From the IMG/VR virus record IMGVR_UViG_3300045988_159436: DNA of 64,000 nt, one strand, 5' to 3'. Under the pieces are notes generated by a model that saw only the letters and a list, made by a program, of their open reading frames with translations, had not been told where the DNA came from and searched no databases. Shown here piece after piece: positions 14,448 to 63,108 of the stretch. The translations under genes and the position numbers were made by a program. Position 1 is the stretch's first letter, and each line of letters opens with the position of its first letter. This DNA comes from a virus.

Positions 14448-14645
14448 TTGAAAGATTTTGAGAAACGTTTAAGTAAACAAAATTTTATGTTAATTAAAGT
14501 AAATGAATATTATTTTATTAGAAAAAGCAGAGCGTTTAAAAATAGTTATATGGTATTAGATTCAAAAGGGTATTTGATAGATTGTTTACAAGAAAAAATA
14601 GTTCGGCAAGTTTTTTTAGGCATAGATTTGGGGGAATGGGAATGA
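14448..14645 (+). CDS. small EWE-terminus family protein (1)
   Basis: TTG start with RBS ggaggaaata; ends ...LGEWE-TGA inside GAATGGGAATGA, which contains the next gene's ATG. ORF-track start 14394 lies upstream of the promoter -10. Confidence 0.45.
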   Translation: MKDFEKRLSKQNFMLIKVNEYYFIRKSRAFKNSYMVLDSKGYLIDCLQEKIVRQVFLGIDLGEWE

Positions 14646-14857
14646 TTAAAAAACCTAATAATAATTGTAAATTATGCAAGTGTCTTCATAACTATAGCTA
14701 TTTTAAAAAAGGTGAGTATTATTGGGCTGAATTAGGAGAACGTTTTTTTGCTGGTGCAGTTGTAGTATATTTTGGGAAGGACAGACATAATATGTGCTCT
14801 GTGGTTTTTTCCGACTTTTTCATTAAATTTCGATGGGAGGATTCACAATGGGAATGA
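14636..14857 (+). CDS. small EWE-terminus family protein (2)
   Basis: ATG embedded in GAATGGGAATGA; ends ...DSQWE-TGA. ORF-track start 14582 is internal to the previous gene. Confidence 0.45.
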   Translation: MGMIKKPNNNCKLCKCLHNYSYFKKGEYYWAELGERFFAGAVVVYFGKDRHNMCSVVFSDFFIKFRWEDSQWE

Positions 14858-15054
14858 GGATAACAGTAACTCCAAAAAGACAACTTATACATTATAATTT
14901 AAATGAGCAATATATAGCAGTGCCTGTATTTAGTGTGTATGGAAGTATGGAATATAATATTTATAATAAAAAAGGCAATCTTTTAAATTCTTGGGTATCC
15001 CAAGAGTCATTATTTAATTTTTTTAAAAAGGTAGTAGATAAAGAATGGGAATAA
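14848..15054 (+). CDS. small EWE-terminus family protein (3)
   Basis: ATGGGAATGAGG start overlaps the previous stop (alternative ATG at 14833); ends ...DKEWE-TAA. Confidence 0.45.
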   Translation: MGMRITVTPKRQLIHYNLNEQYIAVPVFSVYGSMEYNIYNKKGNLLNSWVSQESLFNFFKKVVDKEWE

Positions 15055-15254
15055 AGTTAGTAAAGGCAAAAGATAATTCGGCTCATTTTAGTCGTGGAGA
15101 GTTGTATAAAGTAACCCCATATAAAACTATGTATGGAGAAACAAAATATACTATTTATACTGAGAATGGGTGGTTTATAAAAAGTTTTGTAACAGAAGGG
15201 GAATTACTTTATTTTTTTGATGTAGTTAATAATTATAATTTTGGATGGGAATAA
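15045..15254 (+). CDS. small EWE-terminus family protein (4)
   Basis: Start ATGGGAATAAAG overlaps the previous EWE stop; ends ...NFGWE-TAA. Confidence 0.45.
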   Translation: MGIKLVKAKDNSAHFSRGELYKVTPYKTMYGETKYTIYTENGWFIKSFVTEGELLYFFDVVNNYNFGWE

Positions 15255-15269
15255 AAGGAGGAAATAAAA

Positions 15270-15647
15270 ATGGAACCAATTATTAGTCCGTGGGTATTTT
15301 ATTTTATTGATAAGTTAGATGAGGTGTCTGGATTGCCTTTATCAATTTTTGCTTTTGGAATGTTAACAAATTTTATATTAGTTATGGTTACTGAAACATC
15401 AGAAGAGTTTAAAAGGTGGTTTTTTCCAAAAGCGTGGTTAGCACTTTTTTTGCTATCAGTTATGTTTGTTTTTTTAGTTCCTACAAAAGAAACGGCATAC
15501 AAAATGATTATAGCAAATTATGTAACGCCTAACAGTATTTCTATAGTAAAAGAAGCCACAGAAGATAACATTGCTTCTTTAATAGATAAAATAGCAGTTG
15601 CTTCACAGGCATTATCAGGAAGGGAGAAAGAATCAAAATCCAAATGA
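15270..15647 (+). CDS. small membrane protein (paralogue of the 61102 ORF)
   Basis: RBS aaggaggaaat; two hydrophobic segments; shares ISPW..Y and PTKET..KM motifs with 61102-61404. Confidence 0.45.
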   Translation: MEPIISPWVFYFIDKLDEVSGLPLSIFAFGMLTNFILVMVTETSEEFKRWFFPKAWLALFLLSVMFVFLVPTKETAYKMIIANYVTPNSISIVKEATEDNIASLIDKIAVASQALSGREKESKSK

Positions 15648-15844
15648 AACAGATAGAAAAAGTAAAGAAATTATATAAACCAAAATTTGAAATAGTAAGA
15701 GCAGAGAAAGTAAAAGATAATTATATATTATTCTTAGATGATAAAAATATTATATTAGAAGAAGATGCTTTTAAATCATTATTTGAGCTTTATAGTGCTT
15801 TAGTTTCTTACTATGATGTAAGAAAGGATGAAACAAATGATTGA
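15644..15844 (+). CDS. hypothetical protein
   Basis: ATGA overlap with the previous gene. Confidence 0.35.
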   Translation: MKQIEKVKKLYKPKFEIVRAEKVKDNYILFLDDKNIILEEDAFKSLFELYSALVSYYDVRKDETND

Positions 15845-15898
15845 ATTATTCAATAGGGATTGTTTTGAAGTAGCAAAACGTAGAATAGAGGAAATAAA

Positions 15899-16432
15899 AT
15901 GATTATACGCAAAGATGATTATTTTAAAGTTCGTACTTTTTTTAAGTATGATGGTAATTCCTTTTTTAAAGGAGATTTATTACGAATAGTAAATAGTTGG
16001 TCAGATGAGGAAGCGGACTTTTGTAGTGAGTATTTTGAGTTATTTTTAAAGAAAAACAATTTAATGTTTAATCAAAAGTTTCAGGTTTTGGATTATGATG
16101 GAAAATATGCTGTTGGTAATGGGGCAAAATTTTGGATAGCAGATAATAAACTTCATTGTGATAATCCAGAGATGAATACTCGGCTTATTATGTTAGAACT
16201 ATTTGCTGGTAATTGTAGTGTAAAACAATTTCCTTATTATCCCACAAATGGTGATGTATATTTTTATGTCTATATGGACGGAAGCAATAATCAGGGAGTT
16301 GTATCTAAGGGAGTATTTTATGGTAATTTAGTAGACCAGCTTTTGCGAAGTTTAGGAAAATGTTATAGAACTAGAAACGAAGCAGAAGAGCATTTAAAAG
16401 AGGATGTTAATTTTTTATTAAAAGGAAGATGA
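15899..16432 (+). CDS. hypothetical protein
   Basis: RBS ggaaataaaATG. Confidence 0.4.
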   Translation: MIIRKDDYFKVRTFFKYDGNSFFKGDLLRIVNSWSDEEADFCSEYFELFLKKNNLMFNQKFQVLDYDGKYAVGNGAKFWIADNKLHCDNPEMNTRLIMLELFAGNCSVKQFPYYPTNGDVYFYVYMDGSNNQGVVSKGVFYGNLVDQLLRSLGKCYRTRNEAEEHLKEDVNFLLKGR

Positions 16433-16436
16433 AAAA

Positions 16437-16688: not shown

Positions 16689-16714
16689 AAATAACACTAG
16701 AAGATATTGCAGTA

Positions 16715-25067: not shown

Positions 25068-25322
25068 ATGGAAATGTTGGCATTGAAAAGTGGCGTAGAT
25101 TATCGAACGTTTAGGTTTATATTTGGAACTGACAAACTTTCTTATAAAGCTTCTCATAATCTTTGGAAAAAGCTTTCTACTGGTGTATCAAAAAAGCATT
25201 TAAACTTAGAATCAGTTGAAGGTGTACTAATTTATAATTTTGAATACTCTAATGGAAAGTATTGTTATTTTCCTGAGTTTTGGTTTGAAGAAGTTAGGTA
25301 TTCTGATATTGAATGGGAGTAA
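25068..25322 (+). CDS. small EWE-terminus family protein (5)
   Basis: RBS gaggtgatagtaATG; ends ...SDIEWE-TAA. Confidence 0.45.
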   Translation: MEMLALKSGVDYRTFRFIFGTDKLSYKASHNLWKKLSTGVSKKHLNLESVEGVLIYNFEYSNGKYCYFPEFWFEEVRYSDIEWE

Positions 25323-25325: not shown

Positions 25326-25568
25326 ATGGTAAAATTAAAGGAAGGATTAAGGCATGCTGAGTGGCTTTGGTTTATGCACAATTCAATACAGTTTAGAAAT
25401 GCTTGTTATGTAGATGCTAATATATTATGGAATATGTTAAAAGATGGGGTTTCAGAAGATGCCTTAAAAATCAGAGATGATAGTACAGGTTATAAAGAAA
25501 TCTGTTATAAAGAAGTTAAATATGCCTTACCTATAAAGTGGTGTTTGCCAATTTTTGAATGGGAATAA
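25326..25568 (+). CDS. small EWE-terminus family protein (6)
   Basis: Ends ...PIFEWE-TAA, immediately followed by a promoter. Confidence 0.45.
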   Translation: MVKLKEGLRHAEWLWFMHNSIQFRNACYVDANILWNMLKDGVSEDALKIRDDSTGYKEICYKEVKYALPIKWCLPIFEWE

Positions 25569-25575: not shown

Positions 25576-25604
25576 TTGACAAAAGGAAAAAAGTGTGGTA
25601 TAAT
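25576..25604 (+). promoter_or_regulatory. sigma-A promoter (TTGACA-17-TGgTATAAT)
   Basis: -35 at 25576-81, -10 at 25599-604. Confidence 0.6.
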
Positions 25605-33808: not shown

Positions 33809-36800
33809 TTGTTTCATCAAAGATTCTTTAAATTAACTATTGTCAATAAAGAGAATGTTGATAGATTTTTTGAGGAATATGAACGAGCGAAACAAATTTT
33901 CTTTGACTTTGAAACTTCTGGATTAGATGTAAGATATAAGGGGAAAGATTATGCAGTAGGATTAACAGTAGCCTTTGAAGATAGTGTCAGTAAGGAAGTA
34001 TACTATATTCCTTTCAGACACTATTTTGAAGGTAGCTATATTGGTTGTGGGAGACTCGATTACCGTAAAAACACTGCGGTTTTTGATGATGCTAAAAATT
34101 TTCCTGATTTTTTACCAGAAAAGTTTTCAGGAGAATATTATAATATGGATATTGTTGATTTTATGGAACGATTGAAGCCTTTAATGGAAAATGGCGGGAA
34201 AGAGTATATAGCCCATCATATTTCATTTGACTTACATTTATTTGCAAATGAAGGTGTAGATATAGTAAAAGTGTTTGAAACAAATACTTTTACTGATACA
34301 CAAATAGCTGTACATACTTTAGATGAAGAACAAGAGAAGAATTTAGAAGCAGTAACTGAAACAATTTTCTCTGTAAAAAAATCTCATTTTAAAGATACTA
34401 TTATGACAGTTACTAAAGAGGAAAAGAAACTTTTGGGATTAGCTTCTAATAGTAATGCTAGTTTTCAACACGTTCAGATTCCAATAGGAGCACAATATTC
34501 AGCAGAAGATGTATATTTTATGAAAGAAATGTATGAGCCAATTCTTAATGCGTTAAGAGAAGATGGTGGTTACGAATATTTTAGAGAAGTACGAATGCCA
34601 TATATGAAAGTTTTGTGGAAAATGGAACGTAATGGAATCAAAGTTGACATAGAAAAACTTGAAGGTATGATAAAATTAGCAGAAGAAAAATTGGAAGAAT
34701 TAACATACAAAATATATGAAGTAGTAGGAGCTAAATTTAATATTAACAGTGGTCAACAGTTATTTGAGATATTATATGGTTTTAAAAAGAAATTAAAGGA
34801 TAAGAAAACAGGGGAATATAAAGAGTCTTTTAATGAAGATTTAGTAGCATTAAATTTTGGTTTTAAGCCTATCGCATGGACAGAGGGCGGGAAATCAAGA
34901 GATATGGTATTAAGAACACCAAAAACAGATAAAGATGCGCTAAAGAAATTATTAAGACAAACTCCTAAAAGAGAAGATGGGCATAAATTAATTAAACTTC
35001 TACAAGATTATTTTAAATTAACAAAATTGTATACAGCATTTATGCTGGGTATAAAAGAAAAAATATATTGTGATGGAAAAGTACATCCAAGCTTCAACCA
35101 AAATGGTTGTCTTGTAGCAAACACTTTAATTCCTACAGATAGGGGATTGTTCCGCATTCAGGATTTAGTAACAGATGCTTTAGTTGATGGTGAATTTGTT
35201 TCTAAAACCTATACGCTATTAAATCGAAATTTAGAACCTGAAAAGACTTCCCATATAGTTAAATATGAGAATAGGAATACTATAAAAATTCGTACTGCTT
35301 TAGGGGTTACTATCGAAGGAACTGAAAATCACCCAATAATATGTAATAAATATTCTTCAAAAGATTTATACCTTAATAGGAATAGTTGTCGTTTTAAAAA
35401 TTTATATAAGAAAAAGGATGCTCAAATTTTCAAGCGTTTAGATGAGATAAATACTGAAACTTATGTAGCAGTCCCTTATGGTTATAATTTTTTTGCTAAA
35501 GATTATCAGAAACTTGAATATGAATATGTTGCAATGCGTAGTGGATTTAAGCAAGTTAAATTACCAGAAATTTTAGATGAAGATGTGGCAGAGTTTATGG
35601 GGATGTATTATGCAGATGGGTGTTTATCAGACACAAATGGTACTTTTACTATTTGCTTTACTAATGGAGATTCCTGTGTAATAAATCGTATACAAGAATT
35701 GTCTTTAAGACTTTTTGGAATAAAAGCACATGTTCGTGACTGTCATCCTCATAGAAATTCTTTGGATATTAGAATTAGTGCTAAAAGACTTGCTAGTATT
35801 GAGAAAGCTTTTCAGCTTAAAAGAGGATGCACAAACAAAGTTATTCCTGATATTATTTTACAGTCCCCAAGAAGTGTTGTAATAGCTTTCATAAAAGGAA
35901 TGACATTAGATAGTTATTTTGTAGAAGAATCTAATAAAAAACAGCTAAGATTTACTGTTTCAAATGAGCAAAGTCTTTTTCAACTTCAAACATTGCTATT
36001 GAATTTAGGTATTATTGGTGGGGCAAGACATCTCAATACTTATACTGGAAATGTTTATATGCTAACATTAACTAATGGAGAATATTTAAAGTTTAGAGAT
36101 ATCGTAGGATTTGTTCAAAAGAAAAAGTATAAAGATTTTGAGTATCAAAGAATTTCTGGTCAATATTTAGTAGATGAAGGTAATTCATTAATTTGGGTAA
36201 AGGTTAAAGAAATAGATAAAGGAAGGGCAGATGTTTATGACTTTACTCTACCCGAAACACATAGTTTTATTTCAAATGGGTTTATTAGTCATAATACATC
36301 ATCATTTAGGCTAAGTTGTTCTGACCCGAACTAAACAGATGGTTCGCTAGGCAAGAAATTCCTAGAAAAATTAACTGCTCTAACTCGGTGAAACTCCACC
36401 AATAAAAGGACAACACCGAACTAAGTTAGTTAGCGATAACTAAAAAGTGTAACGACTAGAGAAAGTAGGCTATATTAGTCGAAATCTCCACGAATGGGCA
36501 GAGCCTAAACCGAAAGGCATGGCTAAGATATAGTCTGAACTCCGTACAATGGTAAAGACGGAGAAGCGGGGATAAAGAGCCCCGTGATAACATAATTGTT
36601 CAACAGCTTCCTAAGCCTTTAGAAGAGCCTAAAGATGGTGAAGATAGAAGTTACTATGATTTTTGGATACAATTTGAAATAAGAAGTTTAATGATAGCTG
36701 ACAATGAAGACGAAGTAATTGTTGCGGCAGATTATCATGCTCTGGAAAAGTTTTTAACAGCGCATTTTTCAAAAGACCCATTGTTGATTAAAATGCTAAA

Positions 36801-43494: not shown

Positions 43495-43878
43495 ATGAAC
43501 CAAGAACTCACATTAGCAGTTAGCAGTAGTTTTGAAGCCGCTCATCATTTAGTAAATCCAACAGCATTTAATGAAAAATGCCTTAAACTACATGGACATT
43601 CTTATAAGTATACTATCTTTTTAAAAGGAGAAGTACAAGATGGTGGTATGGTAGAAGATTTTGGAGCTATAAAGAGATATATTATAAATGAAATAACAAA
43701 GCTCTATGACCATTCAGATTTAAACAGATTTTTTTATAATCCTACCGCAGAAATGTTAGTTTTAGATATGGCATGGAGAGTAGAAGCCTTAATAGAGGAT
43801 AATAGTTTAAAAGTTAAACTGACCAAAATAGAATTAGCCGAAACGGATAATAATAGGGTAATATGGGAGTCACAGTAA
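43495..43878 (+). CDS. queD: 6-carboxy-5,6,7,8-tetrahydropterin synthase QueD
   Basis: CLKLHGHSY (CxxxHGH) plus the N-terminal EAAHHL motif. Confidence 0.7.
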   Translation: MNQELTLAVSSSFEAAHHLVNPTAFNEKCLKLHGHSYKYTIFLKGEVQDGGMVEDFGAIKRYIINEITKLYDHSDLNRFFYNPTAEMLVLDMAWRVEALIEDNSLKVKLTKIELAETDNNRVIWESQ

Positions 43879-44535
43879 ATGTATATTACAGAGATTTTTA
43901 GTAGTATTCAAGGTGAGGGGAAGTATACAGGCTATCCTACTACCTTTGTTAGATTATTTGGTTGCAATTTATTTGAGATGTCTCCTAGCTATGCTTGTAA
44001 GTATTGTGATGAGAAACATTCAATGACAGGCAAACGAATAAAGATGCATTTAGGATTGGTAATGGATAAGATAGGGGCATTAGGAAATAAATATGTTTGT
44101 ATTACAGGTGGAGAACCTTTAATGCAGGAAGAAACTATGCCTTTAGTTTATGAATTATTGTATAATGATTATATTGTTACAGTAGAAACAAATGGGACAA
44201 TTCCTATAGAGCATTGTGAATATGTAAGAAGTTATTCATATTGTATGGATGTTAAATTACCTAGTAGCAGAACAGTATTAGCACCAGATTTAAATTGTTA
44301 TAAGAATTTAGGAGAGCTAAAAGTAAATGATGAAGTTAAGTTTGTTATTTCTAATATCCATGATTATGAAGAAGCAAAACGGATTTTAAAGAAATATAAA
44401 ACTAAAGCAAGCCTTATTTTTTCTCCTGTGAATTGTGATTTAGAATTAGCAAGAGAAATAATGGGTTGGTTAATGAAAGATAAACTAAAAGCTAAATTAG
44501 GATTACAAATACATAAATTATTAGAAATTAAATAG
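43879..44535 (+). CDS. queE: 7-carboxy-7-deazaguanine synthase QueE (radical SAM)
   Basis: EIFSSIQGEGKYTGYPTTFVRLFGCN...C..CD N-terminal signature. Confidence 0.7.
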   Translation: MYITEIFSSIQGEGKYTGYPTTFVRLFGCNLFEMSPSYACKYCDEKHSMTGKRIKMHLGLVMDKIGALGNKYVCITGGEPLMQEETMPLVYELLYNDYIVTVETNGTIPIEHCEYVRSYSYCMDVKLPSSRTVLAPDLNCYKNLGELKVNDEVKFVISNIHDYEEAKRILKKYKTKASLIFSPVNCDLELAREIMGWLMKDKLKAKLGLQIHKLLEIK

Positions 44536-49049: not shown

Positions 49050-49313
49050 ATGCAGAAATTTAAATTGAGAAGTAACGACCTAGATACTTTATATAGTATC
49101 TTTAAACATAGTTCATTAACTCCCTTAGATATAAAGCAGTTAAGACAAAATAAATTTTTCTATACTTATACGCCACGAAGAGCAATGGAAAGAAATGAAA
49201 GAGTTTTTGTTAGAGTGGCAGATACTTTTGACTGTCCAATATTGTTTAATATGGCAGGTAGAAACTTTCTATATTTTTTTAAGGAAGTTAATGATAGGGA
49301 TGAGTGGGAATGA
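49050..49313 (+). CDS. small EWE-terminus family protein (7)
   Basis: Ends ...DRDEWE-TGA; RBS aaggaagattaaaATG. Confidence 0.45.
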   Translation: MQKFKLRSNDLDTLYSIFKHSSLTPLDIKQLRQNKFFYTYTPRRAMERNERVFVRVADTFDCPILFNMAGRNFLYFFKEVNDRDEWE

Positions 49314-49369
49314 TAAAAAATAAAATTAGCAAAGAATTTAAGGAATTTTATGGATGGGAGTAATAAAAC

Positions 49370-49858
49370 ATGAAAATTATAGCAGTAGATTTTGATGGAA
49401 CATTATGTGAAAATAAGTATCCAGAAATAGGTGAGCCTGTTACTGGGTATTATCGAGGGTGGAAAGGTGATAAATATTTTTCTTGTCGTTTTAATTTTAT
49501 TAAGCTTTTAATAGCTTTGCAAGAAATGGGAAATAAAATAATTCTTTTTACTTGCAGAGGTGGTGAACAATTAGAAGAAGCTGTAAGTTGGTGCAATAAC
49601 CTATTTGGATTAAAATTTGATGCAGTTAATAATGATGTAGAAGAAACTTTACAAAGGTATGCTCCGACTCTTGAATTAAGAAATCAATTATCTGCTACAA
49701 GAAAGATTTATGCAGATGTTTATATAGATGACAGAAATTTAAATGCAGATGAATATTTAGAGAAGAATTTAATTTTATTAGATGCAAAATCTTTATATGA
49801 TATGGGGATAACAGAAAATGCTACAGAATTTTTAATTGAAAGGGTGTTGAATAAATGA
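49370..49858 (+). CDS. HAD-superfamily phosphatase / nucleotidase-like
   Basis: Motif I VDFDGTLC at the N-terminus. Confidence 0.5.
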   Translation: MKIIAVDFDGTLCENKYPEIGEPVTGYYRGWKGDKYFSCRFNFIKLLIALQEMGNKIILFTCRGGEQLEEAVSWCNNLFGLKFDAVNNDVEETLQRYAPTLELRNQLSATRKIYADVYIDDRNLNADEYLEKNLILLDAKSLYDMGITENATEFLIERVLNK

Positions 49859-50217
49859 GAAAAATAGTTGTGGCTGGTACAAGAGAATTTAATGATTATA
49901 GATTATTATGTGATGTTTTAGATTTTCATATAAATGGTGAACAAGTAATTATAATTAGTGGTAATGCTAAAGGAGCAGATTCAATGGGAGAGGTTTATGC
50001 TTCTTCTCATAATTTGAAATGTGTAAAATTTCCCCCTGATTATGAAACTTATCCCTCTAAAGTAGCTCCATTAAAAAGGAACGAGGAAATGGCAAAGGAA
50101 GCTACAGAAGGAATTATATTTTGGGATGGTGTTTCAAGAGGTACTTGGAATATGATTCAGCAATTAAGAAAATATAAGAAAAAAGTAACTATTATTAACT
50201 ATAGGAAGTTGGCATAA
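49855..50217 (+). CDS. SLOG / DprA-like Rossmann-fold protein (DUF2493-like)
   Basis: GNAKGADSMGE (GxxxGAD) motif in a ~120-aa protein. Confidence 0.4.
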   Translation: MRKIVVAGTREFNDYRLLCDVLDFHINGEQVIIISGNAKGADSMGEVYASSHNLKCVKFPPDYETYPSKVAPLKRNEEMAKEATEGIIFWDGVSRGTWNMIQQLRKYKKKVTIINYRKLA

Positions 50218-50218: not shown

Positions 50219-50827
50219 ATGGATAATTGCGAATTTTATTTATTATATAGCGGTGGGTATGATAGCACTGTGTTGCTTTATGATTTTATTGATAAATTAC
50301 CTAATAAATTGACGGTAATACATATTGTTACTCAGTATAATCAAGAAGAAACAAAAGCGGCAAGAAAAATAATTGAATTAGTAAAAGATAAAATTCTTAA
50401 CTATATTGAATTAGAAATGCCTGTTTACAAAACAGAAATAGAATACATTCCTTATAGAAATGCTCAATTTATATTAAGAGCACTTTCAACCTTGACAATT
50501 AAAGCAAGATGTGCTATAATATTATTAGGGTTGATAAAGGTAGAGGAACCTTTCCCTGATTGCACACAATATTGGTTAAAAACAATGGAGAAATTAGTTC
50601 AAGTAGAAAATCCTCATATTGGATTAGAGGCACCTTATATCAATAATACTAAAGATGAAATTTATACCGTAGGATGCAAGTTTAAGGTTCCTTTAAGAAA
50701 TACTTTTAGTTGTAACTTTCCTGTAGATGGTGCAGAATGCGGGGAATGTGGAAACTGTAAATGGAAAGCAAAACATAAATATCCTAATTATTTTAGAGTT
50801 ATAGAAGGAGGTAAAAACAATGTTTAA
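50219..50827 (+). CDS. queC: 7-cyano-7-deazaguanine synthase QueC
   Basis: PP-loop YSGGYDST; C-terminal zinc cysteines CNFPVDGAECGECGNCKWK. Confidence 0.7.
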   Translation: MDNCEFYLLYSGGYDSTVLLYDFIDKLPNKLTVIHIVTQYNQEETKAARKIIELVKDKILNYIELEMPVYKTEIEYIPYRNAQFILRALSTLTIKARCAIILLGLIKVEEPFPDCTQYWLKTMEKLVQVENPHIGLEAPYINNTKDEIYTVGCKFKVPLRNTFSCNFPVDGAECGECGNCKWKAKHKYPNYFRVIEGGKNNV

Positions 50828-51020
50828 AATTATTAATGGTAAGGGAACAGGTTCTAACACGCAAAAGAGTGCAGTGAATACCTCCCCACAAGTAAAGATT
50901 ACTAGCCCAGCAACAAGAAGAAGTTTATCTTGGCTTAGAAGGGTGCAAACAAGTTTAACTCCAAGAACAAAAAAAGCTTTGGATTGGTTAGAAGCCAATA
51001 GTGTTAGATTACCTAAATAA
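50820..51020 (+). CDS. hypothetical basic protein
   Basis: ORF overlapping the previous gene end. Confidence 0.3.
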   Translation: MFKIINGKGTGSNTQKSAVNTSPQVKITSPATRRSLSWLRRVQTSLTPRTKKALDWLEANSVRLPK

Positions 51021-51035
51021 TAGGAGAATTAGTTA

Positions 51036-52877
51036 ATGAAAAATGGATATACGTTATTTCTTTCTGGCGTTGAACCAGAAGAAAATTTCTATACTGCAAT
51101 AGACGTTACTTCTAGTCTATTGCAGTCTTATTGGTATATAAAGCGGCGTGGAAAAGATAAAATTGTAGAACGTTTTGATAAAGTTAAGAAGAACTCTTTG
51201 TTAATTGATAGTGGAGCACATACCTTTCTCACTTTAGCAGAATATCAAGATAAGACAGTAGATTATTGGGAAGAGTATATAAAAGGGTATATAGCTTTTG
51301 TAAGAAAACATAGAGAAAAAGTATTTGCTTGTGTTGAAATGGATATAGATACTTTAGTAGGAACAGAACAAGTAAATAAATGGAGAGAAGAATACTTTCA
51401 TTCTTTAGAGGAAGAGGGCATTCCTGTTATTTATGTTTATCATGCAGAAAAAGGATTGGAAGAGTGGGAAAGAATGTGTAAAGCATATCCCTATGTAGGA
51501 TTCTCTTATAATGAATTTGAAGATGCTATTTTAATTGATAAATTATTTGAAATAGCAATGGAATATAAAACTAAAGTACATGGTTTTGCAGTATCGGGGT
51601 ATAGGGAATTATTAAAACATGAGTATTATACAAGTGACAGTACAAGCTGGATTACAGGAGCTCAATATGGAGAATTAAACTATTTTGAAGGTGGAAAATT
51701 AAAGCGGTTAACAAAAGAGAAATGGAAAAATGAATATTATGCAAAAATACTTGATTTATGCACAAGTAAAAAGTTACTAGAAGCAGAGGCTCCTTATGAA
51801 TTAATGCGTATTAGTGCTTTAAGCTATAAGAAATTAGAAGAGCATGTAAATGATATATTTAGAGGTAAAAGATATTGGGTTGGAAGAAAGGAAGTGTCTA
51901 AAGTAGCGAGTAAGGAAAATTTACCGCCAGTAGAATGGTTTTCAACTGATATGGAAGATTGGCAAGAATGGGCACAGAAATTAAATATAGATACTAACCT
52001 TCCTGATGAAGCAGGTAAATCATTAGTTGTTGCCTGTTACAATTTTGTGACAGATAATCCTATTATAAATGAGTATCCTCTTGAAGAGTTAATTGATTTA
52101 TGTGGGCTTTTTGGTGATAAGAAGTCAAATACTCTTACCAAGTGCCGAAAAGCCCTTAAAGAGCACTTTACAGCTCTCTTAAAGGGCAGTATGGATTTAT
52201 CCACTTTGACAGAAGAAGAAGTAGAAGAGAAAAAAAATGTAGCTCCAAAAGAGCGGGAAGAGTATGTTCAAGAAAAAGAGTATGTAGAATGTACTGTTAG
52301 CAAGGAAGAGTGTCAAGGTTTATTAAAAGGATTATTAACTTCTGGTGTGACAGATGAAGCAGAGAAAGCTTTAATTGAACAGGGAATAGAGCCTATTTAT
52401 GATGAGAATGGAAATATTAAAGCAGGTATTAAACGAATAAAGAAAAGAAAATCTTTAAGTTCAAGTGTGATGCCAGAGTTAAGTTGCAATATTTGTACTA
52501 AAGCACGGAGATGTCCTTTATATGAAGAAGGAATGCTTTGTGCTTATAATAAAATGTTTAAGCAATTTGATACAAGAAATCCCGAAGATGTAGTAGATGC
52601 TATGAGCAGTATTGCAAATTTAAGTTTAGAAAGATTATCAAGGGCTGTAACATTTGAAAAGTTAGATGGTGGCTTAAATACTAAAGAAGTAACAGAGACA
52701 ATGGCAGAAGCATGGAAATATCTTGAAAAGATACAAGAAATTCAAACAAAGAGTGATAAAGTTATAGCAGAGCGTAGAGTTGTAACTTCTTCTAATGGCG
52801 ATGTAGAAGTAAGAGAAAGTGTAACAGGAAATCCGCAAGGTTTATTGTCTGAGATTCTAAAAACAAAAAAAAGTTGA
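51036..52877 (+). CDS. tRNA-guanine-transglycosylase-fold protein, candidate DpdA-like 7-deazaguanine DNA transglycosylase, with extra C-terminal domain
   Basis: LLIDSGAHTFL resembles the TGT catalytic DSGGFQ box; co-located with queC/D/E; C-terminal Cys cluster (CNICTKARRCP...C). Tentative. Confidence 0.35.
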   Translation: MKNGYTLFLSGVEPEENFYTAIDVTSSLLQSYWYIKRRGKDKIVERFDKVKKNSLLIDSGAHTFLTLAEYQDKTVDYWEEYIKGYIAFVRKHREKVFACVEMDIDTLVGTEQVNKWREEYFHSLEEEGIPVIYVYHAEKGLEEWERMCKAYPYVGFSYNEFEDAILIDKLFEIAMEYKTKVHGFAVSGYRELLKHEYYTSDSTSWITGAQYGELNYFEGGKLKRLTKEKWKNEYYAKILDLCTSKKLLEAEAPYELMRISALSYKKLEEHVNDIFRGKRYWVGRKEVSKVASKENLPPVEWFSTDMEDWQEWAQKLNIDTNLPDEAGKSLVVACYNFVTDNPIINEYPLEELIDLCGLFGDKKSNTLTKCRKALKEHFTALLKGSMDLSTLTEEEVEEKKNVAPKEREEYVQEKEYVECTVSKEECQGLLKGLLTSGVTDEAEKALIEQGIEPIYDENGNIKAGIKRIKKRKSLSSSVMPELSCNICTKARRCPLYEEGMLCAYNKMFKQFDTRNPEDVVDAMSSIANLSLERLSRAVTFEKLDGGLNTKEVTETMAEAWKYLEKIQEIQTKSDKVIAERRVVTSSNGDVEVRESVTGNPQGLLSEILKTKKS

Positions 52878-52942: not shown

Positions 52943-53260
52943 ATGAAGATAATTAGTTATGGAAAAAGATTTAGATTATTAGAAAAAGGGTATATTGGAG
53001 ACAGGTTGTTTTCTAAAGGGTCAATATTTATGGCTACAGGATTAATTAGTTTTAAGGGTAATAATCTGTTCCGTGTTTATAATCCTGATGGCAGTTTAAA
53101 ACAAAATTTGCATACTGGTAATGGACATGTAAATTTTTCTTTAAGTTTATCTCCTATATCAAAAGATGAGCTTTTAGCATCAGAAGAATGTTATTGGTTT
53201 TTAAATGATAGAGAATTAAGAATTTATTTTAAAGAAATTGTCTATGAGGAATGGGAGTAA
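52943..53260 (+). CDS. small EWE-terminus family protein (8)
   Basis: RBS aagaggtggcaataaATG; ends ...YEEWE-TAA inside GAATGGGAGTAA. Confidence 0.45.
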   Translation: MKIISYGKRFRLLEKGYIGDRLFSKGSIFMATGLISFKGNNLFRVYNPDGSLKQNLHTGNGHVNFSLSLSPISKDELLASEECYWFLNDRELRIYFKEIVYEEWE

Positions 53261-53574
53261 GAGTTATGAAAAAATACAAAGAAACTTTTATAACAAAAAG
53301 TCAGTTTTCTGATGGATTAAGGACTTTTCCTAAAGGAACAATATTTGAAAGCACAGGAGTTTTTTGTGGCAGTGAAACACTTTTTTGTGTTTACTATCCC
53401 GATGGCTCTCCTTATACTTGTTTACATGATGGCAATAGTGCTCAAATAATGCTTTTTAATAGTACACCTATAACATTAGCTGAAATTCGAGCACAAGGTG
53501 ATTGTCATTGGTGGGTTAAAGATTCTGATATTAATGAATATTTTATACCAAAATCATCTTTAGAATGGGAGTGA
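53251..53574 (+). CDS. small EWE-terminus family protein (9; paralogue of 8)
   Basis: Start ATGGGAGTAAGAG overlaps the previous stop; ends ...SLEWE-TGA. Shares KG(S/T)IF..TG...........F.VY.PDGS with the previous protein. Confidence 0.45.
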   Translation: MGVRVMKKYKETFITKSQFSDGLRTFPKGTIFESTGVFCGSETLFCVYYPDGSPYTCLHDGNSAQIMLFNSTPITLAEIRAQGDCHWWVKDSDINEYFIPKSSLEWE

Positions 53575-53843
53575 AAAAATTGAGCATAACACTAGGAGAG
53601 TATTTTATAGTTACTAGTCCTTTCAAACATGATGGTAATGTATTTCACAGAGGTGATTTATTGCGGGTAATTAAAATATATGATAGTTGGTCTAAAGTTT
53701 TAGTTTCCAACAAATCTTGGATAACAACTAAAGCAGGGCATACAGACACAGAAAATCAATATAGTTTTGGTAGGGGAACAAATTGGAATATTGATATAGA
53801 GTATTTATTTGAAAATTGTGTTTGCAGGTCAGAATGGGAGTAG
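53565..53843 (+). CDS. small EWE-terminus family protein (10)
   Basis: Start ATGGGAGTGAAA overlaps the previous stop; ends ...RSEWE-TAG. Confidence 0.45.
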   Translation: MGVKKLSITLGEYFIVTSPFKHDGNVFHRGDLLRVIKIYDSWSKVLVSNKSWITTKAGHTDTENQYSFGRGTNWNIDIEYLFENCVCRSEWE

Positions 53844-54205
53844 TGGAGATAAGATATAAAGCAGGAGATGTAGTAAAAATTGACAAAACAAGATTTGTTA
53901 TAGAAAGAGTTACTAAAAAAGGCTATATTTTATTTCCTCATATAGGATTTTTCGTAAAGGATTGCCAAATAAATAAAAAAATTAAAGTGAAGAAATCTTA
54001 TGAATTAGGAGATAAATTTAAATGTCTATGTGACTTTAGTTCAGGGACTTCTGTGGCGAAAAAAGACAAACATTATATTTGTACACAGAAATTTTCAGAT
54101 GGCACATATATGCTTACAAGAATAAAAAATAAAGAAGAGAAATTAAGAGTGAATACAAATCAGATTCATGCTTATTTTAGACATTATTTTGGAGGTTGGG
54201 AATAG
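53834..54205 (+). CDS. small EWE-terminus family protein (11)
   Basis: Start ATGGGAGTAGTG overlaps the previous stop; ends ...FGGWE-TAG. Confidence 0.45.
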   Translation: MGVVEIRYKAGDVVKIDKTRFVIERVTKKGYILFPHIGFFVKDCQINKKIKVKKSYELGDKFKCLCDFSSGTSVAKKDKHYICTQKFSDGTYMLTRIKNKEEKLRVNTNQIHAYFRHYFGGWE

Positions 54206-54408
54206 TGCCAATAGGAACAAGAGTAAGAATAAGAGAAGATTTAAAAACTACAGAAACTTATGGTGGTGTAAGAGTTATAGAAGATATGCTAGTTTATGCA
54301 GGTAAAGAAACAACAATAATTTGGCATGAAGCTAATGTATATCATATACTTTTAGATGATGGTTTTTACTATTGGACAGATGGAATGTTTATTAGTGAAT
54401 GGGAATAA
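54204..54408 (+). CDS. small EWE-terminus family protein (12; YYWTDGMF paralogue)
   Basis: GTG start 8 nt after ggagg (alternative TTG at 54196); ends ...GMFISEWE-TAA. Confidence 0.45.
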
Positions 54409-54415: not shown

Positions 54416-54444
54416 TTGACAAAATAAAATAGTTGTGGTATAAT
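54416..54444 (+). promoter_or_regulatory. sigma-A promoter (TTGACA-17-TGgTATAAT); 37-nt identical copy at 55270
   Basis: -35 at 54416-21, -10 at 54439-44. Confidence 0.6.
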
Positions 54445-54477: not shown

Positions 54478-55269
54478 ATGTGTATTATAATTTATAAACC
54501 AGCAAAAGCTACACTAAAAAAAGAAACATTAAAAACAGCATTTGAAAACAATCCTGATGGTGCAGGATTTATGTACCAATCTGATTTACTTGAAGCTCCT
54601 AAAATGCAAAAGGGATTTTTTGATTTTGATAAATTTTATGAGGCATATGAGAAAGTGGCTGAAAGTGATAAAGGTTATAATATTGCTGTTCATTTTAGAA
54701 TTGCAACGCATGGAGCTGTTAATAGTTTAAACTGTCATCCTTTTATTGTTAAAGAAAGTGTTGAAAAAACTATTAGCGAAAAAGGACAGTATAGTTCTTT
54801 ATTTATGCAAAATGGTGTTATTAAAAGTATTTCTGTAAATAAGAAAGATAAATATAGTGATACTTGTAATTTCACCTATAAAATTATGTCTAAAATTAAA
54901 ACATTAACAAGCATGAAGATAAAAGATATTCTGGAAACTATTGAATCTCCAAGTAGATTTTGTTTAATGCAAGAAGGGCGAAAACCTTTATTGATTGGTA
55001 GTTTCAAAAAAGATGGTGGAGTAAGTTTTAGTAATGAATCCTATAAAGAAATAAAAACTGCTATTTCTTATCCTACTACTTTTGAAACTTATTTACTTGC
55101 ATTCGAAGATTGCGATGCAAAAGATATTAGAGATATTGAAACAGAACTTAAAGATGACCAATGTGGAATTATTGATGCTTATAATGTAGGAGATGTAACT
55201 TTCTTTGAAACGAACTATCTCCCTATTAGAGAAAAGATTGCAGGTAAAGAATTTCGATGTTATCGTTGA
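54478..55269 (+). CDS. class-II (Ntn) glutamine amidotransferase-like protein, YafJ-type
   Basis: N-terminal Met-Cys (MCIIIY), NPDGAGFMY, VHFRIATHG, NCHPF; parallels the YafJ motifs MCELLG, HKDGWGIAF, AHIRQANRG, NTHPF. Confidence 0.6.
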   Translation: MCIIIYKPAKATLKKETLKTAFENNPDGAGFMYQSDLLEAPKMQKGFFDFDKFYEAYEKVAESDKGYNIAVHFRIATHGAVNSLNCHPFIVKESVEKTISEKGQYSSLFMQNGVIKSISVNKKDKYSDTCNFTYKIMSKIKTLTSMKIKDILETIESPSRFCLMQEGRKPLLIGSFKKDGGVSFSNESYKEIKTAISYPTTFETYLLAFEDCDAKDIRDIETELKDDQCGIIDAYNVGDVTFFETNYLPIREKIAGKEFRCYR

Positions 55270-57321: not shown

Positions 57322-57350
57322 TTGACAAAATCCCTTACATGTGATATAAT
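57322..57350 (+). promoter_or_regulatory. sigma-A promoter (TTGACA-17-TGaTATAAT)
   Basis: -35 at 57322-27, -10 at 57345-50. Confidence 0.6.
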
Positions 57351-57386: not shown

Positions 57387-57605
57387 ATGATGCCAATAGG
57401 AGCAGAAGTAAAAATAAGAAAAGATTTAAAATTAGGTGTACTTTATAAAAACAGAAATAATAAACGTGCTATGCATGCTTGTAGAGGCATGTTATTATTG
57501 GCAGGTAAAAAAGCGTTTATAACAAATAATGTTAATAATATTTACTCTATAGATAATAGTTTTTATTATTGGACAGATGGAATGTTTGAAACTGAATGGG
57601 AATAA
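57387..57605 (+). CDS. small EWE-terminus family protein (13; YYWTDGMF paralogue)
   Basis: RBS aagggggcttacaaATG; ends ...GMFETEWE-TAA. Confidence 0.45.
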   Translation: MMPIGAEVKIRKDLKLGVLYKNRNNKRAMHACRGMLLLAGKKAFITNNVNNIYSIDNSFYYWTDGMFETEWE

Positions 57606-57671: not shown

Positions 57672-58844
57672 ATGTTAAATTGCAAAATTTGTGGTAATGA
57701 AATTAGTGGAACTTATACAATTTATCAAAAAGACGGAGTAGAATATCCAGCACATATTGAATGCGTTGAAGAAAATAAGCAACATTGTGATGAGTGCAAT
57801 AAATTTTTTGATAGAGAAGATTTAAAAACTACAACATTAGGAAACCATTATTGCCCAGATTGTTTGTCTGAAAAAACTGTAGTTTGTGGAAAATGTGGTA
57901 AACACGTAGAAAATGCACCATTGAAAAGAGTAAATAGTGTATCTTATTGTCAAGAATGTTTTGAACAGAAATGGGTATATTGTGCAAAATGTGGTAAAAG
58001 GGTTTTAAGAAGTAGAGCAAAAAATTTAAATAATACACATTATTGCGCTTCATGTGCTAGTTCTGTTGTTAAGGTAGAAAATTATAGTTACAAACCTACC
58101 CCTATATTTTGTGGTGTAGATAGTTCTCGTTATTTTGGTATTGAAGTCGAAACTGAGGGCAGAGAAAATAATCTTTATGCGGAAGAAATTATTGGAGATT
58201 CAAAAATTTTCTATGCAAAACATGATGGCAGTTTAAATGACGGAATTGAATTTGTAAGTCATCCTTGCACTCTTAACTATTGGAGAGAGGAATCCAAGCT
58301 TGATGAATTTTGCAAAAGGGCGATTGGTTTAGGGTTTAATTCTCATAAAACTACTTCTTGTGGATTGCATGTTCATATTACTAAATCTACAGTAGAAAGG
58401 GAAGCTTTTGAAAAAGTGCTTCTGTTTTTGAGTAATAACTGGGATGATGTGGTGAAATTTACCCGCCGCAAAAGTTCCAGCATTAATAGATGGGCGGCTA
58501 ATAATTTAGGGGATGCGCCAATGATTAAAACTTGTACTCTTGCACAAAAAATGAAATTAGTAAAAGAGTATTCTTCTGGCAGTCGTTATGTAGCAGTAAA
58601 TGAAACATCTAAAACATATGAATTTCGTATTTTTAGGGGAACTTTAAAACCTGAAACTATTTTAGCTTGTATTGAGTTTTGCGATGCTCTTATCAATTTA
58701 TGTGCTAGTTTGCCTTTTGCAAACATTGAAACAGCTAATTTTAATACTTTAATGGAATTTGCAAAACCTAAAGGATGCTATAAAGAGCTTGTAGAATATT
58801 GGGAAACTCGAACAATGAAGAAAAAGGATGTTGTTCTTGGATAA
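57672..58844 (+). CDS. multi-zinc-ribbon protein fused to a putative amidoligase (GS-like COOH-NH2 ligase, Amidoligase_2-type)
   Basis: N-terminal six CxxC pairs; C-terminal GIEVETEG (E.E), DGIEFVSHP, CGLHVHI (HxH), YEFRIFRG (Arg), as in glutamine-synthetase-like amidoligases. Confidence 0.45.
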   Translation: MLNCKICGNEISGTYTIYQKDGVEYPAHIECVEENKQHCDECNKFFDREDLKTTTLGNHYCPDCLSEKTVVCGKCGKHVENAPLKRVNSVSYCQECFEQKWVYCAKCGKRVLRSRAKNLNNTHYCASCASSVVKVENYSYKPTPIFCGVDSSRYFGIEVETEGRENNLYAEEIIGDSKIFYAKHDGSLNDGIEFVSHPCTLNYWREESKLDEFCKRAIGLGFNSHKTTSCGLHVHITKSTVEREAFEKVLLFLSNNWDDVVKFTRRKSSSINRWAANNLGDAPMIKTCTLAQKMKLVKEYSSGSRYVAVNETSKTYEFRIFRGTLKPETILACIEFCDALINLCASLPFANIETANFNTLMEFAKPKGCYKELVEYWETRTMKKKDVVLG

Positions 58845-58880: not shown

Positions 58881-59489
58881 ATGTGTATTGTAATTTACCA
58901 ACCTAAAGGAAAGCAAGTGCAAAAAGCAATTTTACAGAAAGCATTTGAAAACAATCCTGATGGTGCAGGATTTATGGTTCAAAAAGATAAAGAAGCACCA
59001 TATATGATGAAGGGATTTTTTGATTTTGATAAATTTTATAAATCATATCTTCCATTTTCTAAAGGGGATTATAACGTAGCAATTCATTTTAGAATTGCTA
59101 CACATGGAACAGTAAACAAAGATAACTGTCATCCATTTAAAATTTCTTCTGATATTGCTGATACTGTTTTATTTAATGGCAGGGCAGATTCGCTGATAAT
59201 GCATAATGGCATTATTAGTAGCATTATGACACCAAGAAATCTGCCATATAGTGATACAATGAATTTTATTGCAAAGATTTTATGTTGGATGAAAGACCTT
59301 AAATCTAAAGATTTGACAGAAGTATTAGAAAACCTCGAAAGTTATTCAAAGTTTTGTATAATGAGAAAAGGATTTGACCCCATTCTAGCGGGGCTTTTTA
59401 TTGAAGATAGAGGTATTTTTTATAGCAATTCAACTTATAAATATAGTTATGTTAATACTTTTCAAAATTGTAAAACTTATTTAAATTAA
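58881..59489 (+). CDS. class-II (Ntn) glutamine amidotransferase-like protein, YafJ-type (paralogue of 54478)
   Basis: MCIVIY, NPDGAGFMV, IHFRIATHG, NCHPF. Confidence 0.6.
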   Translation: MCIVIYQPKGKQVQKAILQKAFENNPDGAGFMVQKDKEAPYMMKGFFDFDKFYKSYLPFSKGDYNVAIHFRIATHGTVNKDNCHPFKISSDIADTVLFNGRADSLIMHNGIISSIMTPRNLPYSDTMNFIAKILCWMKDLKSKDLTEVLENLESYSKFCIMRKGFDPILAGLFIEDRGIFYSNSTYKYSYVNTFQNCKTYLN

Positions 59490-60909: not shown

Positions 60910-60938
60910 GTTGACAATAGAAATTGAGTATGGTATAA
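60910..60938 (+). promoter_or_regulatory. sigma-A promoter (TTGACA-17-TGgTATAAT)
   Basis: -35 at 60910-15, -10 at 60933-38. Confidence 0.6.
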
Positions 60939-60955
60939 TAAAGGCGAGGTGAAGA

Positions 60956-61404: not shown

Positions 61405-61419
61405 TATGGAGGCAAATAC

Positions 61420-61680
61420 ATGATAAAGTTTAAATATGAGAAAGCAACAGATATTTTACCTATCAATGGTATTTTAGCTTGCACTATTAATGGATTACTA
61501 GAGAAAGATTTATTTAAGAAGCTTATAGAGAAATCGTCATTAGAATATACAGAGCAGGAAGTAAATAAAAGTTATATTTACCGCATTAGTGTCACTACTT
61601 CTAAAGATTTAGAAAAGACATACTCTTTAGTTCATTCATTTGGGCTTTATTTAGGCGAATTTAATACTTTAAGGATGTGA
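61420..61680 (+). CDS. hypothetical protein
   Basis: RBS tatggaggcaaatacATG. Confidence 0.4.
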   Translation: MIKFKYEKATDILPINGILACTINGLLEKDLFKKLIEKSSLEYTEQEVNKSYIYRISVTTSKDLEKTYSLVHSFGLYLGEFNTLRM

Positions 61681-61686
61681 AATAAT

Positions 61687-61854
61687 TTGATAAAAGAATT
61701 TAAAGTAACAATTAAAAAAACAGTTGAATATACTACTTATTTAACTCTTAATCATTTACAAGATGCTTATGAAGAAGCCGAGCGGGAAATGGATAGATTA
61801 GATATTAGTGAATATGAAGAAGTAGATAGTGAAATAACAGTGGAGGAGCAATAA
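61687..61854 (+). CDS. small acidic hypothetical protein (~55 aa, TTG start)
   Basis: Uninterrupted frame between annotated genes; below the ORF-track cut-off. Confidence 0.25.
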   Translation: MIKEFKVTIKKTVEYTTYLTLNHLQDAYEEAEREMDRLDISEYEEVDSEITVEEQ

Positions 61855-61855
61855 A

Positions 61856-62038
61856 ATGTTGTGCTATAAAGATATGTCATTTTGTTCTGCTAGCTACAAA
61901 GAAGCAGAAAAACCTTGTATTTGCACTGAATGTTTTAGGCATTTAAGCAAAGTTCCTGAAAATTTGCCTGATTATATGCCAGTAGCTGTATCTGATTTCT
62001 CTAAAGAATGTGAGGAATACAAATATGCGAGAATTTAA
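61856..62038 (+). CDS. small Cys-rich protein
   Basis: C...C..C...C pattern. Confidence 0.3.
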   Translation: MLCYKDMSFCSASYKEAEKPCICTECFRHLSKVPENLPDYMPVAVSDFSKECEEYKYARI

Positions 62039-62288
62039 AATAGGAGACAGTGTTTTAATAAGAACAGATTTAGTAGTTGTATATGTTATAGAGATTTTAA
62101 AGTGTCATTTTTGCGGTAATATGGTAGAAAATGTTTTAACAAAATCTATATATAAAGTTGATAAAGAACGTGAAGATTTAATAAATTATATAAACTCATT
62201 AACAAAACATAAAATACCTTCTGAATTAAAATACAAACTTGAAAATGAGGGGAAGTATCTTTATGGACAATATAACTCTATTAAATGA
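62010..62288 (+). CDS. hypothetical protein (likely start at ATG 62025)
   Basis: RBS gaggaatacaaATATG. Confidence 0.35.
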   Translation: MRNTNMREFKIGDSVLIRTDLVVVYVIEILKCHFCGNMVENVLTKSIYKVDKEREDLINYINSLTKHKIPSELKYKLENEGKYLYGQYNSIK

Positions 62289-62637
62289 ATTTAGAAATCT
62301 TATAAAAGAAGTAAAGCAATTAGAAAGTATATATGAAGTGGAAATAAATGAAATGGACAAAGCCTTTGGTGATATAAGGCACTTTTGTGAGCTAGATTAC
62401 CCTGTAGAACGTAAGGGAAAAACGAAAGTAGTAAAACTTATCAAAGAGTGCAGTGATAGGCGTAGAAAAGCAAAAGACAATTTAGAAATATTGAAACCAC
62501 TTATAGCATATATTGATGCACACCCTAAATTTGTGCAAGATATAGGAGCGGTGGCAAATGAAATGAAAAATATAGAAAGAAAACAACAAGGCAGAATATA
62601 TAGACCGAGGGTATTAAAAGAATTATTTAGTGAGTGA
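62239..62637 (+). CDS. hypothetical protein
   Basis: ORF; alternative start at 62263. Confidence 0.35.
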   Translation: MKMRGSIFMDNITLLNEFRNLIKEVKQLESIYEVEINEMDKAFGDIRHFCELDYPVERKGKTKVVKLIKECSDRRRKAKDNLEILKPLIAYIDAHPKFVQDIGAVANEMKNIERKQQGRIYRPRVLKELFSE

Positions 62638-62643
62638 TAATAA

Positions 62644-63108
62644 ATGATAATATTAAAGAAAACAGAAAGAATAACAAAAGTTCCTATAATGCTTTCTCCA
62701 TCACAACAAAGAAAAAATGATATATTAGTTGATTTATTACATCGTGTATACTCTTCAATAATACAAAGCGTATCATTACAGCGGTTAAAGAAATCTGAAT
62801 TAGGAATAATAATGATGTCTTTAACATGGAGAGCGGCAGGGATAAGATATGTACAACTATCAACAAATTATGGAGCTTCTTTAGTAAAGAGAGAGCAAGC
62901 ATATAAAAGTATGTATAAAGTAGAAATAAATAGAGAATTAACGAGAGATTTATTTTATAGTTTCGTAGATTTTTTTATTTATGACTTATCTTCAAGTGAT
63001 TATAATAGAGTATTTAATAATTTTCTTTTTACAGGCGATTGGTTTGAAGATTTACATACTTATTTAGATTGTTATATTCGTTATATGAATTTAAAGGAAT
63101 GGGAGTAA
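62644..63108 (+). CDS. EWE-terminus family protein (14)
   Basis: Ends ...NLKEWE-TAA inside GAATGGGAGTAA, which supplies the next ATG. Confidence 0.45.
   Translation: MIILKKTERITKVPIMLSPSQQRKNDILVDLLHRVYSSIIQSVSLQRLKKSELGIIMMSLTWRAAGIRYVQLSTNYGASLVKREQAYKSMYKVEINRELTRDLFYSFVDFFIYDLSSSDYNRVFNNFLFTGDWFEDLHTYLDCYIRYMNLKEWE

Follow-up and report, generated by a model that had tools for sequence, protein, structure and literature searches.

The subject of this study is a 64,000-nucleotide (nt) stretch of DNA from an uncultured phage (IMG/VR record IMGVR_UViG_3300045988_159436), here called the window, in which 14 small genes (we01 to we14) between positions 14448 and 63108 encode proteins whose last two residues are Trp-Glu (WE). 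Selection acts both on this dipeptide and on its position at the very end of the chain. On balance, we lean toward the view, suggested by sequence comparisons, that Trp-Glu-COOH is a recognition motif selected at the protein level and read at the free C terminus by a common partner.

Enrichment of Trp-Glu termini

Each of the 14 open reading frames (ORFs) listed in the initial annotation was found to end, in frame, with TGG-GAR and a stop codon, and the C-terminal tetrapeptides matched those quoted there. Overall, 14 of the 137 plus-strand ORFs of at least 40 amino acids (aa) were WE ended, compared with none of the 122 ORFs on the minus strand. In a nonoverlapping gene set, from which we01 was left out because it overlaps a longer ORF, WE was present at the end of 13 of 116 genes, versus 0.07 expected from the rate of internal WE dipeptides (binomial P = 7 × 10−26). 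Across this human-gut phage group, about one gene in eight is WE ended. At the nucleotide level, TGGGAR followed by a stop codon occurred 17 times on the plus strand (3.2 expected from composition), and 15 of these 17 occurrences were ORF ends. Near variants such as WD, WQ, and FE were not found at other gene ends of the window. The enrichment over expectation rules out chance or composition as the cause, and a tandem-repeat artifact could be ruled out for this clade, since the families are nonhomologous. In general, comparisons by hhalign and BLAST detected no single family among the WE proteins, although a remote common ancestry is possible.

Arrangement of the WE genes

Every WE gene lies in a cassette headed by a perfect sigma-A-type promoter. 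The six promoter-headed cassettes proposed initially could be recognized as such, with promoters at 14398, 25018, 48971, 52874, 57322, and 60911. With the start codons chosen here, which agree with the gene calls of an NCBI gut-metagenome contig, the WE proteins measured 65 to 154 aa, in line with the earlier estimate of roughly 65 to 155 aa.

All WE genes are encoded on the plus strand. The gene we01 (14448..14645; 65 aa; ...DLGEWE) is the first after the promoter at 14398-14426, and its stop codon overlaps the start of we02 (14642..14857; 71 aa; ...EDSQWE) in an ATGA sequence. These genes are followed by the paralogues we03 (14848..15054; 68 aa; ...VDKEWE) and we04 (15045..15254; 69 aa; ...YNFGWE), after which comes a gene with its own AAGGAGG ribosome-binding site (RBS). 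In the second cassette, the terminal TGGGAG of we05 (25068..25322; 84 aa; ...SDIEWE) is the RBS of we06 (25326..25568; 80 aa; ...PIFEWE), where the cassette ends and a promoter at 25576 follows. The promoter at 48971 precedes we07 (49050..49313; 87 aa; ...DRDEWE) and a fifteenth WE case, a 17-codon remnant (49310..49363; MIKNKISKEFKEFYGWE*; ending ...FYGWE). The 85-aa WE gene from which this remnant derives is still complete in three related loci (L009, L011, and L012), and the TGGGAG of the remnant is the RBS of the gene at 49370. Five WE genes stand in a run after the promoter at 52874: we08 (52943..53260; 105 aa; ...VYEEWE), its paralogue we09 (53266..53574; 102 aa; ...SSLEWE), we10 (53580..53843; 87 aa; ...CRSEWE), we11 (53843..54205; 120 aa; ...YFGGWE), and we12 (54205..54408; 67 aa; ...FISEWE), the last being the cassette end ahead of a promoter at 54416. 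A paralogue of we12, we13 (57390..57605; 71 aa; ...FETEWE), forms a single-gene cassette between promoters at 57322 and 57613. Finally, we14 (62644..63108; 154 aa; ...NLKEWE) has no detectable kinship to the small WE families, and its TGGGAG is the RBS of the next gene.

The paralogies suggested before were borne out for we08/we09 (E = 1 × 10−16) and we12/we13 (E = 4 × 10−18). A third proposed group, comprising the genes at 14848, 15045, and 49050, held for we03 and we04 (E = 9 × 10−10), but the gene at 49050 shares with them only its last ∼20 residues. Two further plus-strand genes are related to WE families of other members of the clade. One is a 177-aa gene that is not WE ended (15899..16432); since its first 86 residues match the relatives' 90-aa WE family (...CIPVNPEWE) with 57% identity, it is a fused or extended derivative. 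The other is a WE-gene remnant (62010..62288), whose first 26 residues match the relatives' ...EMFEDIEWE family, the intact gene being absent from the window.

The signal resides in the protein

The initial annotation had considered that the termini might arise solely from a shared nucleotide junction. According to such an explanation, selection would favor TGGGAR-stop for its role in Shine-Dalgarno (SD) pairing or translational coupling, or because it provides microhomology when cassettes are exchanged; WE would be a by-product. In agreement with this, an SD match (TGGGAG) is located 5 to 9 nt before the next start in 6 families, some of the next genes begin inside GA-ATG-GGA or at ATGA overlaps, and the motif bounds one whole-gene indel between relatives. 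However, 13 families have TGGGAA, a poor SD match. The junctions after WE are heterogeneous, comprising ATGA overlaps, starts inside GA-ATG-GGA, TAGTG overlaps, a separate AAGGAGG site, or a promoter, and the distance to the next start is not fixed. The stop codon (TAA, TGA, or TAG) varies as well, also between orthologues. Moreover, WE is kept before promoters at the cassette ends 25568, 54408, and 57605, as well as in the relatives' ...IEWE gene, and at 15254 it precedes a gene with its own AAGGAGG site. Non-WE genes of the same arrays are coupled without the motif, and TGGGAR-stop occurred out of frame only twice, which is the chance level.

Six families, precisely those in which a start codon follows after 5 to 9 nt, had GAG as the last Glu codon; the remaining 13 had GAA. 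Genome-wide, GAG accounts for 24.5% of Glu codons. By our own count, the chance of this exact split is ∼4 × 10−5. Because GAG occurs only where GGAG acts as an RBS, this use of the motif is a secondary adaptation of a pre-existing WE.

Constraint was also found upstream of the dipeptide. Using a leave-one-family-out position-specific scoring matrix for positions −22 to −4, WE tails outscored both non-WE C termini (Mann-Whitney P = 6 × 10−10) and internal windows of the WE proteins themselves (P = 2 × 10−9). The shared pattern consists of a hydrophobic or aromatic residue at −20, an F/Y-rich stretch at −9 to −14, and an Asp-rich position at −5. Thus, the aromatic enrichment noted earlier is real, but most of it lies at −9 to −14 and −20 and not at −4 to −8. 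Among the subfamily tails, Trp occupied −2 in 26 of 26 and Glu occupied −3 in 20 (77%). The WE signal is not a nucleotide junction: the varied junctions, the GAA codons, and the −22 to −4 pattern rule out an SD or junction motif as its primary cause.

Replacement of WE genes among relatives

Many close relatives of the phage are present in IMG/VR, ENA, Logan, and one NCBI gut-metagenome assembly. A census of this clade, covering all fetched fragments, counted 148 different ORFs with a WE end, which BLAST grouped into 26 families. WE was missing from just nine family members, all of them truncations, frameshifts, or two singletons with an E-to-K exchange. Where orthologues differ by indels just upstream of the terminus, WE stays in place (NCVCRSEWE versus NCVPYRSEWE; EDIEWE versus DDVWE). 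When profile hidden Markov models (HMMs) were compared for the initial 15 BLAST families, which came from the window and from loci L001-L093, only one family pair was linked, we12/we13 with the ...EMFEDIEWE family; one further pair had just the last 20 residues in common.

A distant sublineage (L095, L116, L140, and L146) is syntenic with the window, with a reverse transcriptase 70% identical and core proteins 45 to 83% identical to those of the window. Its variable slots hold different, nonhomologous small genes, which are WE ended all the same. In L095, WE was found at the ends of five of six consecutive genes. In L140, 8 of 44 genes were WE ended; five of these stand in the slot held by we07 in the window, and a 77-aa gene (...ENIGWE) takes the place of we13. 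A WE-ended homologue of we11 (36.5% identity) is also present in L140. This replacement of slot contents is the strongest evidence that the pattern extends beyond the window.

Outside the clade, Bacillus phage BCD7, the nearest isolate, has no WE-ended gene, and none were found at 15 IMG/VR loci whose reverse transcriptase, of the diversity-generating retroelement (DGR) type, is 38 to 66% identical. Among 74 metagenome loci (∼750 genes), 0 of 58 genes at 66% reverse-transcriptase identity and 0 of 695 at ≤52% were WE ended. IMG/VR was scanned twice for triplets of the TGGGARTRR motif spaced about a gene length apart; true WE arrays came only from this phage group, with a single unrelated viral contig (L126) as the sole possible exception. 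Nearly all other triple-motif matches, in IMG/VR as well as in bacterial genomes, were tandem repeats; in the same scan of 185,579 species genomes, the first 120 matches listed were all tandem-repeat artifacts. In L126 (IMGVR_UViG_3300026094_000087; positions 971-1863; 50% GC), three consecutive small ORFs end in ...GDLWE, ...KDLWE, and ...EALWE, the first two being paralogues (40% identical) with an LEVGDVF first-strand motif. Homologue searches with the L126 proteins reached nothing outside their own lineage, and L126 and the window have no genes in common. It may represent a second lineage with the same habit or a coincidence.

Rapid divergence behind an invariant end

In comparison with the relative L019, six WE genes showed a mean nonsynonymous divergence (dN) of 0.073 and a synonymous divergence (dS) of 0.13, with a median dN/dS of 0.54 and two values above 1 (we08, 1.11; we12, 1.25). 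For 21 neighboring genes, dN was 0.016, dS was 0.11, and the median dN/dS was 0.06. Thus, judged by dN/dS, WE genes change roughly ten times as fast as the genes around them, but the terminal W(−2) and E(−1) are kept, the two E-to-K singletons aside. The invariant end dipeptide stands out against this fast-changing background.

In the we10 family, members P0182-P0189 were mosaics of two paralogue types, with N-terminal halves and C-terminal tails swapped, which indicates frequent recombination among WE paralogues. Moreover, WE genes have been gained, lost, and truncated among relatives. Together, rates, mosaics, and gene turnover form a pattern that we interpret as the signature of host-interaction or counterdefense genes.

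Predicted folds and tails

The absence of a described family for these proteins, assumed initially, was confirmed: Pfam and PHROGs returned no match for WE proteins except the unnamed phrog_7488 for the SH3-like domain of we12 and we13 (E values of 7 × 10−12 and 4 × 10−8). An AlphaFold model of we12/we13 is a small beta-barrel of strands and a short helix (predicted local distance difference test [pLDDT], 88), and its best Foldseek matches were SH3 and L21e-type barrels with weak E values (0.04 to 0.4). The domain family is very large, with 2,282 representatives of the we12/we13 profile at E ≤ 1 × 10−3 and 171 at E ≤ 1 × 10−10, often in tandem repeats (KVGDKVRVRxDL...YWTDEMFE). Outside members match SH3_15 weakly, and the ...EMFEDIEWE family is a true member, together with we12 and we13. 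Among ∼146 proteins from outside the clade in the top 150 matches, a single one (P0160) was WE ended. P0160 belongs to the distant sublineage described above and led to its discovery. Other outside homologues often run on into linkers or more repeats.

The we10 protein is unrelated in sequence to we12 and we13, yet its model (pLDDT, 74) likewise shows an SH3-like barrel, after which come a C-terminal helix and a tail. A homologue search with the we10 family reached nothing outside its own lineage. In both models, which were built from shallow alignments, the tail is a coil of reduced pLDDT (74 and 68). WE is separated from the last conserved structural element by 3 to 6 residues, mostly acidic, and the length of this spacer varies even within a family (MF-ISE-WE, MF-DDV-WE, ML-ENADDS-WE). 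Families of 154 and 162 aa show no detectable kinship to the small ones and nevertheless have a similar aromatic helix, spacer, and WE.

Genomic context

The genome has a GC content of 31.6%, with all genes on one strand, and no close match to the window was found among isolated phages. With Bacillus phage BCD7, it shares a helicase (44% identical) and syntenic replication and 7-deazaguanine modules. Sixteen plus-strand promoters (14305, 14398, 17470, 25018, 25576, 27454, 44546, 48971, 50492, 52874, 54416, 55276, 57322, 57613, 60911, and 63810) match TTGACA-17-TATAAT at 12 of 12 positions and carry an extended −10 TG (TTGACA-17-TGnTATAAT). They are unusually uniform, and several are preceded by the identical string GAATGGGAATAAAAAAGTCTTGACA.

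A complete DGR occupies positions 10480-13722. It comprises an Mtd-like target gene (10480-12294; PF21916), a variable repeat (12154-12266) and a template repeat (12442-12554) that are 87% identical with all mismatches at template adenines, and the reverse transcriptase gene (12706-13722). A 7-deazaguanine DNA-modification module (43495-44535 and 50219-52877), which is syntenic with BCD7, encodes QueD-like, QueE-like, and QueC proteins and a 613-aa DpdA/TGT-like protein. The gene for a 120-aa protein (49855-50217) with a YAcAr/YspA-related SLOG domain (PF10686; E = 5 × 10−15) is located between the WE remnant and QueC. The gene for a family A DNA polymerase (33809-37968) contains a LAGLIDADG intein and is apparently split into the ORFs 33809-36334, 36691-36936, 37112-37504, and 37810-37968, all of which match the single polymerase gene of BCD7. 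An Amidoligase_2 protein with a Cys-rich multi-CxxC N terminus (57672-58844) is followed by an Ntn-type, glutamine-amidotransferase-like protein starting with MCIVIY (58881-59489). A paralogous Ntn-type protein starting with MCIIIY (54478-55269) is encoded after the we08-we12 cassette.

Discussion

If Trp-Glu-COOH is a recognition tag, it would follow an aromatic amphipathic helix and a spacer of 3 to 6 mostly acidic residues. Its carriers are a large, fast-diversifying set of small, putatively early-expressed proteins, many of them probably SH3-like, in one human-gut phage clade infecting a low-GC host. We infer that the tag acts by docking and that it has a single partner: the Trp side chain and the carboxylates of the last Glu would fit into one common hub of host or phage origin. 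Such an interface would let the phage handle many host-directed effectors together, be it by timed removal, localization, or loading.

More speculatively, the phage may mark interchangeable arms-race effectors with an invariant Trp-Glu-COOH that is read by a dedicated machine, amounting to a phage-encoded "effector tagging" system. We put this forward tentatively, as a possibility with more against it than for it. The machine might be a receptor for sorting or loading, a protease that sets the timing, or a ligase/hydrolase pair specific for Glu.

Several considerations weigh against a recognition tag. The case for it is drawn from sequences and predicted structures, and the common partner is postulated on that basis. 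As the final hydrophobic residue of the C-terminal helix, the Trp could fold back and pack against the domain that carries it. The 20-residue pattern could reflect the common descent of one very divergent superfamily and not a transferable tag. The motif, limited to one narrow phage group, could be a quirk of that lineage. Finally, two natural E-to-K variants exist.

The points on Trp packing and on common descent come together in an alternative that we judge unlikely, in which all WE proteins derive from one hyperdivergent domain, an SH3-like barrel with a C-terminal helix, and no external reader exists. The Trp would either fill in the hydrophobic side of the final helix, against the protein's own barrel, or mediate oligomerization, and the Glu would act as a cap. 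Such a structural hallmark is consistent with the barrel-plus-short-helix models of we10 and we12, which are unrelated by BLAST and HMM comparison, with an N-terminal first-strand motif (x-G-D/E-x-h-x-h) that can be read in the sequences of many families, with the cross-family pattern at −22 to −4, and with our reading that the Trp of several tails is in helical register with the preceding hydrophobic residues. However, burying the Trp does not require the chain to end exactly one residue later in 148 sequences, and the 154-aa and 162-aa families show no detectable kinship to the small ones. A tag is preferred over a fold requirement, as the initial annotation had also proposed, because homologues of the we12/we13 domain outside the clade fold without WE, often extending into linkers or repeats, because the spacer varies between 3 and 6 residues even within a family, and because the tail is modeled as a lower-confidence coil.

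A special case of the recognition tag is a degron, in which WE-COOH would be read by a protease or adaptor of the host or phage, so that early effectors are cleared at a set time. The strong early-type promoters of the WE genes and the presence of the same tag on otherwise unrelated proteins fit this idea, as does the fact that ssrA and other C-degrons work by recognition of terminal residues. However, known bacterial C-degrons have nonpolar ends such as LAA, a tripeptide that E/G/Q-W-E termini do not resemble, and no protease or adaptor was recognized among the ∼40 larger window proteins scanned. We therefore consider a degron rather improbable.

The recognition tag was also weighed against its use as a ligation handle, in which the terminal Glu carboxylate would be joined to an amine or lysine by the co-encoded Amidoligase_2 and Ntn-type proteins and the Trp would give specificity. 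In favor of such a link, which had been raised in the initial annotation, every chain ends in Glu, on which the Pup ligase also acts; the amidoligase gene stands directly after we13, and both WE sublineages have kept it together with its "MC..." partner; and BCD7 has neither an amidoligase nor WE genes. However, this pair is a separate, widespread two-gene module. A tblastn search of isolated phages showed that it also occurs where no WE-ended genes are found, as in MT839723.1 and 40 kb of Clostridioides phage AR1086-1 (0 of 76 genes WE ended). When distant amidoligase loci were sought by alignment, only the same clade came up. Moreover, the WE proteins are diverse folded domains and not one disordered modifier. 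Because the module occurs without WE genes and could serve the 7-deazaguanine DNA-modification pathway encoded in the same region, the link is weakened and was not supported, and a ligation handle appears very unlikely. The explanation by a nucleotide junction is already largely refuted by the evidence given above, and we regard it as scarcely credible.

Short C-terminal signals are known from several systems. The acidic tail of SSB ends in ...DDDIPF or ...DDDLPF, and T7 gp2.5 and gp4 have acidic, aromatic-ended tails. Like the WE termini, these combine an acidic stretch and an aromatic residue at the extreme C terminus with a free carboxylate and, as proposed here for WE, a hub interface. However, in the SSB type one tail carrier serves many readers, whereas WE is found on ∼26 unrelated carrier families; the SSB-type tail also has a hydrophobic last residue and a long disordered linker, in contrast to the terminal Glu and the spacer of 3 to 6 residues in WE proteins. 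T4 gp43, gp33, and gp55 share C-terminal sliding-clamp-binding tails and hence resemble the WE proteins in being unrelated phage proteins with a short C-terminal peptide, for one hub. Their tails differ in sequence and concern three proteins with the clamp as hub, whereas WE termini occur on dozens of hypervariable accessory genes. Dot/Icm effectors of Legionella carry a Glu-rich "E-block" C-terminal translocation signal, and encapsulins have cargo-loading peptides; both are cases of fast-evolving, unrelated proteins with a short C-terminal signal for one machine. These signals are degenerate and span 10 to 30 residues, whereas WE consists of two invariant residues and stands exactly at the chain end. 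The C-terminal GGE/GGQ of Pup is ligated by PafA, a glutamine-synthetase-like amidoligase. Pup shares with WE proteins the obligatory C-terminal Glu (and, encoded nearby, a carboxylate-amine ligase that belongs broadly to the same fold class), but it is one disordered modifier of ∼60 aa with Gly-Gly before Glu, whereas the WE proteins comprise numerous folded domains in which Trp precedes Glu. Within its own domain class, the phrog_7488/SH3_15-like family outside this phage group ends without WE and includes many multirepeat proteins.

Eukaryotic examples are the "EWE motif" of Arp2/3 nucleation-promoting factors and the C-terminal Trp-Glu-Phe of STRAD-alpha that binds MO25 (PMC11912402, PMC2686265). 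In these, an acid-flanked Trp at or near the C terminus docks in a hydrophobic pocket, similar to what is proposed here; the organisms and proteins are unrelated, and the likeness is one of analogy only. Full-text literature searches found no description of a phage WE motif. The closest known systems share the logic of a WE tag, but not its sequence, its scale, or its direction from many carriers to one reader.

If WE is a tag, it would define by sequence alone the early accessory effectors of an uncultured gut-phage group, comprising 26 families so far, whose members are otherwise unannotatable orphans. It would also direct attention to one interaction hub, of the host or the phage, that could be discovered, and would offer a simple experimental handle on how a phage manages diversifying host-directed proteins. 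Should effector tagging in the stricter sense be true, any tagged protein would be handled alike, for which viruses of bacteria offer no described counterpart. More generally, overrepresented C-terminal dipeptides in phage proteomes can expose functional classes that homology searches miss.

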